From Escherichia coli (GTDB lineage: Bacteria; Pseudomonadota; Gammaproteobacteria; Enterobacterales; Enterobacteriaceae), in NCBI RefSeq assembly GCF_003334315.1, contig NZ_QOWR01000109.1: a stretch of DNA of 2,574 bases. One strand, written 5' to 3'. The notes below the pieces were generated by a model, which searched no databases, was not told the DNA's origin, and saw nothing but the letters and a program-made list of their open reading frames with translations. This document shows, one piece after another, positions 1-2,473 of the stretch (positions are counted from its first letter, which is position 1; each line of letters starts with the position of its first letter). Position numbers and translations under genes: made by a program.

Positions 1-61
1 TGTTTTTGTCATGTGAGTCACCTCTGACTGAGAGTTTACTCACTTAGCCGCGTGTCCACTA

Positions 62-397
62 TTGCTGGGTAAGATCAATCAGCTTCCCCCTACGGAAGAT
101 AATAAACAGCCTTCTTTTGATGTTCTTGATGATGATTGGGATGCGCCTTTGCCGTGGGAGACGGAAGAAACACCTGTTTCATCAAGTGAAAAGGTAGCTA
201 ATGATAAGGAGGATGTGTTAGAGAATTTTGCCTCTCTTATCATCCAGGAGAAGACTACTAGAACAGGAGGGGCATCATTTATAGAATTTGCAACATCGTT
301 AGCCTATAAGCACAGGTTAAAGCTACCAAATGGTATTGAGGCATATTTTTCTAAGAATTACCCAAATGTATACGAAGACTTTGATCTTCCCTTTTAA
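62..397 (+). CDS. Hypothetical acidic protein (111 aa) with an SSB-tail-like C-terminal tip ...YEDFDLPF; start codon uncertain
   Basis: Open frame from TTG at 62 to TAA at 395-397. An in-frame TGA at 29-31 rules out any start upstream of 62, and there is no in-frame ATG anywhere in the ORF. No clear SD precedes the TTG, so the start is uncertain; an in-frame GTG at 215 follows an AAGGAGG at 206-212 but the spacing is only 2 nt. The N-terminal half is strongly acidic and low-complexity (DVLDDDWDAPLPWETEE). The downstream gene's SD sits 5 nt after the stop, consistent with an operon. Confidence 0.5.
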   Translation: MLGKINQLPPTEDNKQPSFDVLDDDWDAPLPWETEETPVSSSEKVANDKEDVLENFASLIIQEKTTRTGGASFIEFATSLAYKHRLKLPNGIEAYFSKNYPNVYEDFDLPF

Positions 398-413
398 AAA
401 GTAAGGAGGACTA

Positions 414-692
414 TTGATCCAATATTTAGTAAAAAATCAAGTAGACAGAATTCAGTGTAATGACACAGGAAAACGCATCTACGAAACACTTGCTTACCTC
501 TATAAAGGAAAGCCAACACCGCTAAAATATAGCGATGTGTTACATCGAGCAGGGTGCTCTGAAGATGGTTTAAAATTCTGGCTTAGACAGCTATCAAATT
601 TCGGTGTTATAGAGATTAAAGAATTATCTTTCTCTACATTCAATCTCAAAAGACTAGACAGAGAAATAGACTTCATCTATTCCACTCTCTAA
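414..692 (+). CDS. Hypothetical small protein (92 aa), possibly helix-turn-helix or winged-helix DNA-binding
   Basis: TTG start at 414 is the first possible start after an in-frame TAA at 402-404, and is preceded by a consensus SD AAGGAGG at 403-409. The frame runs uninterrupted to TAA at 690-692. The segment YSDVLHRAGCSEDGLKFWLRQL has the spacing of a helix-turn-helix (A-G at the turn), but the assignment is by eye only. Confidence 0.65.
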   Translation: MIQYLVKNQVDRIQCNDTGKRIYETLAYLYKGKPTPLKYSDVLHRAGCSEDGLKFWLRQLSNFGVIEIKELSFSTFNLKRLDREIDFIYSTL

Positions 693-733
693 AATCTCTC
701 TATGTAATTAAAATATAAAAGGAAAACATTATT

Positions 734-850
734 ATGATAGTAGCTATGTATTGGTTATTGTTCTTTCTCACGTTAGAAACATACTTCGGGGTGTTTTCCT
801 TTAAAAGAAAAGGAAAAGTAAATGGCAAAAAGAAAAAACAACGTTGTTAA
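734..850 (+). CDS. Possible small hydrophobic peptide (38 aa): MIVAMYWLLFFLTLETYFGVFSFKRKGKVNGKKKKQRC
   Basis: ATG at 734 follows an AAAAGGA at 717-723 with 10-nt spacing. The peptide has a roughly 23-residue hydrophobic segment followed by a Lys/Arg-rich tail, and ends at TAA 848-850. It overlaps the 5' end of the 822-1232 CDS in another frame. It was read by hand and is below the ORF-track length cutoff; it could be a chance ORF in AT-rich DNA. Confidence 0.2.
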   Translation: MIVAMYWLLFFLTLETYFGVFSFKRKGKVNGKKKKQRC

Positions 851-1232
851 GAAAATCGGTGATTCAGCTTCTCTTCTAAGTAAACCTAAATCTCTTCTAA
901 GACGCAAAGACTTTAAAGAGCTAGTTACGCTCACCAAGCAAAATAGCGCCCCTGGCGAATGGAAAACAGAGATTATAGAACATTCTCCCTCTGTGCCTTG
1001 TGGAGATGAATATATCGCATTACAAGAAATCTTATCTTCAACACCTGGCGTATTCTGGAAACCTAGAAAAAGAAAAGAGTATATTGTTGACAGCTCTGAT
1101 CTACGCAAATACCAGATTTTAGGATTTGAAGATTATAACCACTATGTTGGTTATCTCGCCACCAATGGCCTAAATAATTTAGTTCCAGAATTCCAGATTT
1201 TAGATAATGCTGATCACTATGGAGACTTTTAA
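822..1232 (+). CDS. Hypothetical basic protein (136 aa), Lys/Arg-rich N-terminus
   Basis: ATG at 822 immediately follows an in-frame TAA at 819-821, with AGGA at 812-815 (6-nt spacing). The frame is open to TAA at 1230-1232. The N-terminus MAKRKNNVVKK...SLLRRKD is very basic; no family recognised. Confidence 0.65.
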   Translation: MAKRKNNVVKKIGDSASLLSKPKSLLRRKDFKELVTLTKQNSAPGEWKTEIIEHSPSVPCGDEYIALQEILSSTPGVFWKPRKRKEYIVDSSDLRKYQILGFEDYNHYVGYLATNGLNNLVPEFQILDNADHYGDF

Positions 1233-1233
1233 T

Positions 1234-1572
1234 ATGAACAAAAACACGTATGACACAATTTACTCACTAATTAATTATTATGAGGATGATTACCTCCTGC
1301 CTTTAAACCGCGCTGAACTTGAAGCATACAAAGAAAACACGCCAGCGGCACTAAATGAGGCGTTTAAACACTGGGATTTAGCTGTGAATGCCTTTGAGCA
1401 CCTCTCTAAGCGTGTAGAGATGCTCTGTAAGCGTGAGAACGCATATCTAACAGCGGATCAGATATGGAGTCTCTCAAACTGGATAGAAGGTATTGAATCG
1501 GACGTTCGCTATGTAGGGGATGGCCTTGTTGAACTCGCACAACGCTTAGGCGCTGCTATCACAGAAGAATAA
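1234..1572 (+). CDS. Hypothetical acidic, probably alpha-helical protein (113 aa from ATG 1234), translationally coupled to the upstream CDS
   Basis: The ORF track starts this frame at ATG 1207, but ATG 1234 is preferred: GGAG at 1221-1224 lies 9 nt upstream and the upstream gene's TAA (1230-1232) is 1 nt before this ATG, the classic coupling arrangement. ATG 1207 and ATG 1219 have no SD. Stop is TAA at 1570-1572. Protein from 1234 begins MNKNTYDTIYSLINYYEDDY... Confidence 0.6.
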   Translation: MNKNTYDTIYSLINYYEDDYLLPLNRAELEAYKENTPAALNEAFKHWDLAVNAFEHLSKRVEMLCKRENAYLTADQIWSLSNWIEGIESDVRYVGDGLVELAQRLGAAITEE

Positions 1573-1601
1573 AAAAAGCAACAAAAAAGTTGTAAAATAT
1601 C

Positions 1602-1630
1602 TTGACATTTCATATATTGTATGTTAATAT
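1602..1630 (+). promoter_or_regulatory. Sigma-A-type promoter: -35 TTGACA (1602-1607), 17-bp spacer, TGn-extended -10 TAATAT (1625-1630)
   Basis: Perfect -35 hexamer, a 5/6 match at -10 with TG at 1622-1623 in the extended -10 position, and optimal 17-bp spacing. An A-rich tract (1571-1590) sits where an UP element would be. Predicted transcription start is near 1637. Sequence inspection only. Confidence 0.6.
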
Positions 1631-1636
1631 AATTAT

Positions 1637-1839
1637 ATAGGGTGATTATTTTTCCTTTATTGGTTCGATATTAAAAATTCTTCTTGTCGTTAAAGGGGAG
1701 TAAAATCTCCGCTCCCCGCTTCTCCTCCTTAAGTAATACTGTGTCATTTACCTCTTTTTTCCTTTGTTATGCATACATCTTGGAGTGTGCATAACATAGG
1801 GTAATTACAAAGGCGGCTTTAAATGCTGCCTTTTATTTT
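1637..1839 (+). ncRNA. Putative structured 5' leader or small RNA (about 200 nt) running from the predicted start site to the terminator hairpin
   Basis: Bounded by the promoter at 1602-1630 and the hairpin plus U-tract at 1809-1839. It contains a G-rich block AAAGGGGAG (1692-1700) that can pair with any of three CU-rich blocks (1706-1710, 1712-1717, 1721-1727), and an imperfect 10-bp inverted repeat (1767-1776 with 1785-1794). No ORF with a credible SD lies inside. I could not match it to any riboswitch class from memory. Confidence 0.3.
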
Positions 1840-1851
1840 GCCCGTTATGCA
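1766..1851 (+). repeat. Three copies of the 8-mer GTTATGCA: 1766-1773 (+), 1788-1795 (inverted, TGCATAAC), 1844-1851 (+)
   Basis: Exact 8-bp matches read directly from the sequence. The first and second copies form an inverted repeat with a 14-bp spacer; the third lies between the terminator hairpin and the 1902 CDS. Candidate operator half-sites or RNA structural elements. Confidence 0.3.
1809..1839 (+). terminator. Intrinsic-terminator-like hairpin with U-tract (AAAGGCGGC-TTTAAAT-GCTGCCTTT then TATTTT)
   Basis: The GC-rich stem GGCGGC (1812-1817) pairs with GCTGCC (1825-1830) including one G-U pair, is extended by three A-U pairs, has a 7-nt loop, and is followed by TTTTATTTT (1831-1839). 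It sits 237 bp after the stop of the 1234-1572 CDS and 62 bp before the 1902 start, so it could terminate block A, attenuate readthrough into block B, or both. Confidence 0.55.
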
Positions 1852-1901
1852 ACTTAAAAGTTGTATTTCTTACTTTAAACAAGGTAACAAGGTTTATATA
1901 A

Positions 1902-2114
1902 ATGTTGTTCTTAAATGATAAAGAGCAAATCATCAAGTATCGAGATGAAATGCTGCGAATTACTCCACAAATTACCGAAATGGTAGCTAAATACGCTGGG
2001 TGTTCTGTCGAGGAAGTAGAAAGATGTGTTGAAAAATATTTTTCTCCTTCTTCTCCGTCTACACCTTCCCTTAATGAATTAATCAAATTAAAAGCTAAGG
2101 AGATTACTAAATGA
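1902..2114 (+). CDS. Hypothetical small protein (70 aa): N-terminal helical region with possible HTH, Ser/Pro-rich linker, Lys-rich C-terminal helix
   Basis: ATG at 1902 with AAGGT at 1888-1892 (9-nt spacing). The frame is open to TGA at 2112-2114, which overlaps the next start as ATGA. Contains ITEMVAKYAGCSVEEVERCVEKY, then SPSSPSTPS, then LNELIKLKAKEITK. No family recognised. Confidence 0.55.
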   Translation: MLFLNDKEQIIKYRDEMLRITPQITEMVAKYAGCSVEEVERCVEKYFSPSSPSTPSLNELIKLKAKEITK

Positions 2115-2473
2115 TTATTGATTTAGACACTCTGTTTCCAGTTCGAAAGACTTTCACAGATATTGTAAGTTATTGTACTGATCCGTTTGCCTCTGTAGAA
2201 AGCAAGGTTTTTGCTTCTCTTCCTGCTGATGTTGAATGCGGAGACTTGATCACCAGCACGGGCGCTAAATATGTATCAGGAGATGATATCTATGTTGTTA
2301 TGAGTGAATTTGTAACGGCTGGAGAAAACAAGCCTGTAGATGTTTTACGTAGCAATGCTGGCCTTGTGTGCATTAAAGCTGATGCGCTGAATGCTGTAAG
2401 TGAAGCAGCAAAAACAGCATTAATTAAAAAAGGCTTCCAGCTTGAAGGCTTCCACTCTGTTTTCACTTCTTAA
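2111..2473 (+). CDS. Hypothetical acidic protein (120 aa), translationally coupled to the upstream 70-aa CDS
   Basis: ATG at 2111 overlaps the upstream TGA (2112-2114) in an ATGA arrangement. AAGGAG at 2097-2102 gives 8-nt spacing. Open to TAA at 2471-2473. No family recognised. Confidence 0.6.
   Translation: MIIDLDTLFPVRKTFTDIVSYCTDPFASVESKVFASLPADVECGDLITSTGAKYVSGDDIYVVMSEFVTAGENKPVDVLRSNAGLVCIKADALNAVSEAAKTALIKKGFQLEGFHSVFTS

Follow-up and report, generated by a model that had tools for sequence, protein, structure and literature searches.

A small open reading frame conserved on capsid-encoding islands of enterobacteria and a predicted RNA helix over its Shine-Dalgarno sequence

Introduction

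Annotation pipelines as a rule leave out small membrane peptides. Here we consider a 38-codon open reading frame (ORF) on a stretch of Escherichia coli DNA of 2,574 nucleotides (nt; contig NZ_QOWR01000109.1, hereafter the window, by which the whole stretch is meant), and ask whether this ORF is a gene and what kind of product it would have. The window is a fragment of a compact integrated island of ~8–12 kb, cut by IS3-type insertion sequence (IS) elements. In the original prediction, made from the letters of the window alone, the ORF was described as unannotated and read as a peptide with one transmembrane (TM) helix and a cationic tail, resembling type I toxins or small phage lysis or holin-like proteins; a chance ORF in AT-rich sequence was given as the alternative. 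As described below, the ORF is probably a translated gene of a capsid-encoding, integrase-bearing island, encoding a membrane-helix peptide of ~38 amino acids (aa), with an RNA helix that keeps its own translation low. It is among the most persistently conserved features of a widespread compact capsid-island family found in E. coli, Klebsiella and Enterobacter.

Results and Discussion

A 38-codon ORF overlapping the start of the next gene

The small ORF runs on the plus strand from the ATG at 734 to the TAA ending at 850 (38 codons plus stop), exactly where it had been predicted, and its translation is MIVAMYWLLFFLTLETYFGVFSFKRKGKVNGKKKKQRC (38 aa). A Shine-Dalgarno (SD) sequence, AAAAGGA, lies at 717–723, 10 nt 5' of the ATG, as had been claimed. 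The ORF starts in the gap 693–821, which is bounded by the upstream ORF ending at 692 and the next coding sequence starting at 822, and it overlaps the latter by 29 nt (822–850) in another frame, since the distance between the two starts (822 − 734 = 88) is 1 mod 3; both the gap and the overlap were confirmed. The description of the ORF as unannotated holds for RefSeq/PGAP, as the ORF was missing from the RefSeq annotation in every record examined. It does not, however, hold for GenBank and UniRef, where the exact peptide is already listed as 'hypothetical protein', in GenBank on 752 contigs (e.g., ELC02767.1).

Judged in the window alone, the small ORF is not beyond chance. ORFs of 20 aa or more number 34 in the window, and at its 27% GC the probability that 38 codons stay open is ~0.02 per frame and start. 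The small ORF stands above chance because it is conserved across lineages.

The ORF is conserved in diverged islands

A check of conservation in homologous loci, which had been proposed together with the original prediction, was run and favours a real gene. The window interior was matched in 455 of 5,426 complete E. coli genomes, on the chromosome in all cases, with a full-length match at ~93–98% identity in 303 of the 455, and much-diverged relatives of the island were found in Klebsiella, Raoultella and Enterobacter. The small ORF was open in all 15 intact E. coli islands (15/15). At locus L007, one of these 15, 13 of 51 nt differ from the window over the ORF start, yet the peptide is MVIAMWWLLFFMLVETY; every replacement is therefore conservative.

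Diverged islands were chosen via the downstream gene only (50–58% identity; Klebsiella, Raoultella, Enterobacter and Leclercia), followed by an exhaustive profile search; a contig scan with a profile of the downstream protein returned one close relative only. Every diverged island with the gap carries an ORF of 30–41 codons in the same slot and in the same frame relative to the next gene, with flanking proteins as low as 23–58% identical. These ORFs always start with ATG, have a purine-rich core 8–11 nt upstream, and stop 16–37 nt beyond the next ATG. Specifically, the core GGAAA is conserved 5' of the small ORF's start codon (ATG1) in the main lineages, and the lineage of loci L045 and L047 (L045/47) has CGGGCAA instead. 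The peptides begin with MIILYWTLFIYITVYYSGMFSVKRNNNN in Klebsiella pneumoniae (L018), MIIMLYWTFFIYITAYYSGVFSSYKDKNNN in Raoultella (L039), MITALWWWALLYGLYVMTRQGVSPLRG in Enterobacter (L019), MIIAMYWLFAFYAVWTLTRTNGSFPLRG in a metagenome (L044) and MANAFMAIFIVTMALSFYNPHKKR in a distant E. coli-type locus (L047). The upstream 92-aa gene is only 23–28% identical in the most diverged islands, indicating that the three-gene arrangement is old, and L041–43 have a frameshift in this gene next to an intact small ORF. In addition, gene callers have predicted the peptide repeatedly, as 10 clusters of 37–50 aa, in a search whose query was the peptide plus two natural in-frame upstream residues. Note that unrelated proteins of 442–452 aa (P0210, P0236) share 90%-identity clusters with peptides of 32–39 aa, one of them as the representative. 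We rejected these 442/452-aa members as homologues because they are clustering artefacts, and caution is needed for representatives of very short proteins.

A remnant of a related island lies between rcnR and the thiM riboswitch in several hundred E. coli genomes, including O157:H7. It ends inside the small ORF, at the equivalent of window position 783, beside an IS-derived 'HTH-like' fragment. In the remnants L003 and L005, the first 17 codons are retained and run on into unrelated sequence, and L004-type remnants, a class also matched in O157:H7, carry a stop and a frameshift, as expected for decay. The divergent first 17 codons of L007 (3321–3371, against window 734–784) are the version found in this remnant lineage. 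The flanking genes of the two islands differ far less (proportions of nonsynonymous and synonymous differences, pN and pS, of 0.01 and 0.07–0.14), and the ORF start in L007 may be a short recombination patch or a hypervariable spot.

Substitutions in the ORF are of the coding type

The distance from ATG1 to the start codon of the next gene (ATG2) was 82, 85, 88 or 91 nt, always 1 mod 3, and between L019 and L037 a compensated pair of indels (+A/−C within 8 nt) leaves the ORF open. The chance of an open frame was 0.02–0.09 for each of five lineage representatives. In the Klebsiella clade, the part of the ORF 5' of ATG2 had a pS of 0.25–0.65 and a pN of 0.06–0.21, giving a pN/pS of 0.15–0.52; the downstream gene had 0.20–0.30 in the same pairs. 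Variable sites at the first, second and third codon positions numbered 8/4/18 in the Klebsiella clade and 22/17/38 overall (chi-square p = 0.009). Over the first 27 aligned codons, the summed pN/pS was 0.50 in the true frame versus 0.84 and 0.94 in the shifted frames. Furthermore, T was enriched at codon positions 1 and 2 versus position 3 (38/43/25 of 90 in the five lineage representatives, p = 0.018), in keeping with selection of codons for Phe, Leu, Ile, Tyr and Trp.

The chance ORF that had been offered as an alternative is thus rejected by the conservation across lineages, the indels in steps of 3 nt, the compensated frameshift and the third-position bias, and the small ORF appears to be a true conserved gene rather than a chance product of AT-rich sequence. 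Two other frames at the locus were discarded as well. A minus-strand ORF at 700–828 (42 aa) is not conserved, as no minus frame of the Klebsiella gaps is open for more than 14 codons, and a 35-aa ORF in an alternative frame is confined to Enterobacter.

The peptide has a predicted hydrophobic helix and a dual-coded tail

All variants of the peptide start with 18–23 uncharged, aromatic-rich residues, and the first Lys or Arg is found at position 19–25. In the window, this hydrophobic, aromatic-rich segment corresponds to 737–802 (plus strand, codons 2–23) and is a predicted membrane helix according to the Kyte-Doolittle (KD) and Hessa scales and AlphaFold. The 17-residue KD maximum was 1.4–2.1 across the variants. 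AlphaFold, used with the family alignment, gave one helix at residues 2–28, with a predicted local distance difference test score (pLDDT) of ~83 over residues 1–20, and a disordered tail.

The residues after the helix are encoded by the purine-rich SD of the next gene (AAA GGA AAA, AAA CGG AAT, CGA GGA etc.), and the remaining tail is made of the next gene's A-rich, Lys/Arg-rich first codons read in another frame. The overlap of the tail with these first codons (822–850 in the window, plus strand, 29 nt) is kept in all lineages; the length and sequence of the tail vary freely, and frameshifted and stop-loss tails occur. Of the TM helix and cationic tail originally described, the predicted hydrophobic helix and the basic stretch after it were found, but the tail is not independently conserved. 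Judged from the sequences, the helix-plus-cationic-tail architecture is probably real, and the Lys-rich tail is at least partly a by-product.

The peptide sequence was not found in the literature searched, and no description of the peptide family, the RNA helix dealt with below or the dual-coded tail was found in the libraries or papers searched.

A predicted RNA helix encloses the start codon of the small ORF

The original prediction overlooked a feature at the RNA level. The SD region of the small ORF (SD1, AAAGGAAAACA, 718–728, plus strand) is the 5' arm of a long-range helix, the other arm of which (TGTTTTCCTTT, 792–802, plus strand; hereafter the anti-SD) lies inside the ORF at codons 20–23. 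In the window, the two arms are Watson-Crick complements at 11 of 11 positions. The anti-SD can alternatively pair with the SD of the gene starting at 822 (SD2, AAAGGAAAA, 809–817, plus strand), which is a direct repeat of the SD1 region. Specifically, 794–802 is complementary to SD2 at 9 of 9 positions in the window and in E. coli, and 7 nt of complement between anti-SD and SD2 are present in Klebsiella.

A perfect complement of SD1, 8–11 nt long and at the same position in the ORF, was found in three main lineages (E. coli, most of the Klebsiella group and Enterobacter-like). The arms in E. coli, AAAGGAAAACA in SD1 and TGTTTTCCTTT in the ORF, were reached by 0–1 of 2000 shuffles. The corresponding arms were GGAAAACAT and ATGTTTTCC in Klebsiella (L018 and L022; 22–25 of 2000 shuffles), AGGAAAACA and TGTTTTCCT in Raoultella (L039; 22 of 2000), and GGGAAACT(T) and (A)AGTTTCCC in the Enterobacter-like lineage (5–31 of 2000). 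In K. michiganensis (L041), only a 7-nt run was found (AAACATC with GATGTTT), which was not significant (337 of 2000 shuffles), and a longer pairing there contains a one-base bulge. The changes between lineages include compensatory ones, namely A-U to G-C, A-U to U-A, and a shortening of the A4/T4 run to A3/T3.

The helix, which is 8–13 bp long, was the closing stem of both the minimum free energy (MFE) and the centroid structures and enclosed ATG1 in 6 of 6 lineages folded independently. A whole-leader alignment by MAFFT lost the register of the arms between lineages, and an arms-only alignment was therefore registered by hand. In this alignment, 87% of the cells pair, and sliding the partner lowers this to 46–66%; both sides have changed in three pairs, and none of 500 shuffles reached the covariation score. 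In the loop of the helix, which contains the TM-coding part, no secondary structure is conserved between lineages. The helix is absent in the L045/47 lineage, which keeps the hydrophobic ORF, indicating that the peptide is conserved independently of the RNA structure. The 'G-V/M-F-S' motif of the peptides is better explained by nucleotides than by amino acids, because L019 and L037 keep GTTTCCC while their reading phase differs. Protein-like features such as the Lys-rich tail and the G-V-F-S form of this motif can accordingly be dictated by overlapping RNA signals.

Two further ideas about this region were set aside. A hairpin masking SD2 was demoted from main feature to secondary hypothesis because it was not significant against shuffles. 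A programmed frameshift that fuses the helix to the 136-aa protein encoded downstream is unlikely, as it needs +1 and the A-runs are short (5–7) and absent in the Enterobacter lineage.

Proposed function and points that weigh against it

According to the explanation that we favour, the ~22 N-terminal residues would form one hydrophobic, aromatic-rich helix, most likely inserted in the inner membrane, the basic C-terminus facing the cytoplasm. The gene would belong to the replication-side operon, between the genes for ~92 and ~136 aa, and run over the ribosome-binding site (RBS) and start of the latter. Pairing of 718–728 with 792–802 around the start codon would hold down the peptide's own translation, so that ribosomes should initiate chiefly while the mRNA is nascent or transiently open. 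The anti-SD may switch to SD2 in E. coli and Klebsiella, and making the peptide and starting the next gene independently could then be linked alternatives. Ribosomes reading the small ORF would also unwind the anti-SD and pass SD2 and ATG2, which may couple translation of the two genes. A single anti-SD able to mask its own or the neighbour's RBS would be a compact regulatory design that is easy to test.

As to the effect, our best guess is a membrane-active peptide that has to stay at low dose and is used by the island during its induced cycle. Tight control of the dose of a hydrophobic peptide suggests a membrane activity that is harmful in excess, and in this respect the peptide may functionally resemble toxic small peptides. 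If it is membrane-active, the peptide would be a candidate route for minimal elements to manipulate or lyse the host or to interfere with a helper phage. A much bolder version, which we consider rather improbable, is that the ORF and its anti-SD form a self-contained translational toggle in undescribed mini HK97-capsid islands. A dose-limited membrane-active effector (for lysis, host takeover or helper interference) would then be synthesised only while its mRNA is nascent or unfolded, alternating with the 136-aa protein and controlled with no antisense RNA.

Several observations weigh against the favoured explanation. IS elements have cut the copy of the island in the window's genome down to a dead fragment. 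The ORF is missing in L021 and L036, and only there; in these islands the upstream module is replaced and no gap is left, and the ORF is therefore not essential for the downstream gene. The coding signal outside the Klebsiella clade is weak, with a pN/pS of 0.67–0.89 and position counts of 9/10/13 in the Enterobacter clade, and a pN/pS of 0.61 for the pair of the window and L007. Hydrophobicity is borderline for a membrane span, as judged from the KD maxima given above and from summed Hessa values of ~0 to +1.5 kcal/mol. Regarding the RNA, the pair count comes from a hand-registered arms alignment of 7 sequences and leans towards structure, and folding z-scores of the whole region are modest (−2.0 to +0.4). 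The local anti-SD:SD2 hairpin had z-scores of −2.6 to +0.9 against shuffles, which is not significant, and in the Enterobacter lineage it is weak, not conserved and not the MFE structure.

Alternative explanations and comparison with known systems

The reading put forward in the original prediction, i.e., a membrane toxin or a lysis-type peptide, which would act on the host by depolarisation or lysis once the island is induced, is a sub-case of the favoured explanation and does not exclude it, and we regard it as unlikely. Its size and single predicted helix were borne out, and the antisense RNA, lysis context or family match that would go with such a peptide were not found. Full-length type I toxin mRNAs are poorly translated, their SD being sequestered by an intramolecular element. 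The small ORF resembles these mRNAs (hok, tisB, zorO, aapA1), as they encode fewer than 50 aa with one hydrophobic helix and show intramolecular SD sequestration. It encodes a hydrophobic peptide below 60 aa (38 aa) with one predicted TM helix followed by basic residues, and its SD is sequestered in the mRNA fold by the predicted SD1:anti-SD helix, as in mRNAs of toxic small peptides. Unlike type I toxin loci, however, it is embedded in an operon, overlaps the start of the next gene, and shows no sequence similarity to them and no detected antisense RNA. A consensus scan, which is blind to weak or atypical promoters, found no minus-strand promoter near 700–900, and a promoter-like antisense site in L018 was a single match that was not conserved in L022 or the window and lay within shuffle expectation. 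An antisense RNA was rejected on the ground that no promoter for it is conserved, and Rfam gave no match at the small-ORF locus, leaving no known RNA family for it.

A lysis role would agree with the finding that no holin was recognised among the island proteins. The ORF nevertheless lies in the replication-side operon, between the replication module and two uncharacterised genes, and not in a lysis cassette. The sole endolysin-like match of the island (phrog_1517) is weak, occurs in one protein only, which matches the tail fibre phrog_817 better, and is located ~5 kb downstream of the ORF. With phiX174 E, Sgl proteins of single-stranded RNA phages and pinholins, the small ORF shares the small size, one TM segment, a basic region, an overlapping gene and a very compact genome; it differs from them in that it is not in a late or lysis context, lacks their conserved motifs and has no family match. 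Holins normally have at least 60 aa and usually at least two TM segments, and a peptide of 38 aa with one helix falls outside the known holin classes. No toxin, holin or defence family, or any other described protein family, was assigned: PHROGs gave no hit better than E = 0.01 and all its hits were families of unknown function, NCBIfam and PADLOC gave no match, and the precomputed Pfam entry was '-' for P0001–P0010. Moreover, the ORF persists in decayed fragments such as the window, which is unexpected for an unguarded strong toxin.

A somewhat less probable explanation, to which we give little credence, is that of a purely regulatory leader ORF. Here the act of translation would matter, as it opens or occludes the anti-SD and SD2 and couples ribosomes to the 136-aa gene, and the released peptide would be functionless. 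In all lineages the small ORF spans the SD and start of the next gene (SD2 at 809–817 and ATG2 at 822 in the window), as expected when a leader overlaps the RBS that it regulates. The ability of the anti-SD to pair with either SD in E. coli and Klebsiella, the nucleotide-driven G-V/M-F-S motif with its phase shift between L019 and L037, the unconstrained tail, and the weak coding signal in the Enterobacter clade also agree with this idea. The ermC-type and other overlapping leader ORFs of translational attenuation or coupling are likewise short and directly upstream and overlap the next RBS, and the anti-SD may, like the RNA element in such leaders, have two partners including the downstream SD. 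By contrast, the hydrophobic character and sequence of the small ORF are conserved, and its pairing with SD2 is at best weak in the Enterobacter lineage. The sequence of the peptide is not irrelevant, since hydrophobicity is conserved and purifying selection is seen in the Klebsiella clade, in which third-position bias and a gene-like pN/pS occur upstream of the anti-SD. The N-terminal 18–23 residues are hydrophobic and aromatic in every lineage, including the helix-less L045/47, and a leader that needed translation only would not keep this character.

It is highly improbable that the ORF is not translated and that what is conserved is just an RNA structure or a leader regulating the downstream gene, with an incidental open frame: the conserved long-range helix, the SD-like direct repeats, the unremarkable ORF statistics within the window and the missing RefSeq/PGAP call would suit this, but no lineage has lost the open frame although divergence is saturated, the ATG is invariant and properly spaced from the GGAAA core, indels occur in multiples of 3 only apart from the one compensated frameshift, substitutions are biased to third positions, the helix loop has no structure conserved between lineages, and L045/47 keeps the ORF without the helix.

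With regard to the favoured explanation of a translated membrane-helix peptide, similar in size and architecture, and in these only, are the small regulatory inner-membrane proteins MgrB, AcrZ, MgtS and UgtS of enterobacteria, which have 30–50 aa and a single predicted TM helix and are often missed by annotation. These proteins are chromosomal and have known partner proteins, whereas the small ORF is on a mobile island, and an NCBIfam search found no sequence similarity between its peptide and any of them. UgtS is reported to be likewise encoded by the first of two genes in an operon whose translation is controlled (PMC8896665).

The island and its other features

Window positions 1–77 and ~2476–2574 match the termini of IS3-family elements from enterobacterial plasmids and chromosomes, and homology to the island begins at ~78. 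An intact island was found at L001 7197–15668, where it adjoins tRNA-Thr/proA, and window 78–2473 is part of it. Its genes are, from left to right, two small ORFs, a Rep-initiator/helix-turn-helix (HTH) protein (phrog_428, HTH_36), the 92-aa gene, the gap with the small ORF, the 136-aa gene, a 112-aa gene, a non-coding gap of 330 nt, 70-aa and 120-aa genes, a lambda-E-type major capsid protein (PF03864), a 67-aa gene, a 611-aa tape-measure-like protein, a 238-aa tail-fibre/baseplate-like protein and a tyrosine integrase. At the left end of the window, an IS interrupts the Rep-initiator gene, of which ORF 62–397 is the C-terminal part only. Where intact islands have the capsid gene, after 2473, the window's genome has an IS instead.

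No terminase, portal or protease was recognised among the L001 island proteins. The capsid protein, of the lambda-E-type HK97 kind, was only ~25% identical to any phage capsid in 50,697 phage records, the best matches being Pseudomonas myophages. The island looks like a phage satellite, and may be an undescribed satellite or a 'mini HK97' family (compare bioRxiv 10.1101/2025.06.18.659913).

The conserved left neighbour of the small ORF (414–692, plus strand) encodes a hypothetical, winged-helix-like protein of 92 aa. The conserved right neighbour (822–1232, plus strand) encodes a hypothetical protein of 136 aa with a Lys-rich N-terminus and a PRKRKEY motif. Searches gave no functional clue to the latter, and it had no homologue in the same phage records.

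The window also has a non-coding gap at 1573–1901, and a long non-coding gap is kept at this position in all related islands. A strong sigma-70-like promoter (TTGACA-17-TAATAT with a TG extension, 10/12) was noted within it, in a stretch at 1602–1833 on the plus strand. An intrinsic terminator followed by a T-run lies at 1809–1833, ~200 nt past that promoter, so that the stretch is a candidate small RNA or leader; Rfam gave no match for the gap region. The gap further contains several direct and inverted repeats, e.g., 1761–1776/1785–1800. Finally, the Klebsiella and Raoultella islands have an extra gene of 73–75 aa between the homologues of the 136-aa and 112-aa genes (L018 3405–3632, L022 3409–3630 and L039 3405–3629), which is absent in the E. 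coli islands, and some of the islands with this extra gene adjoin a Dam methylase gene.

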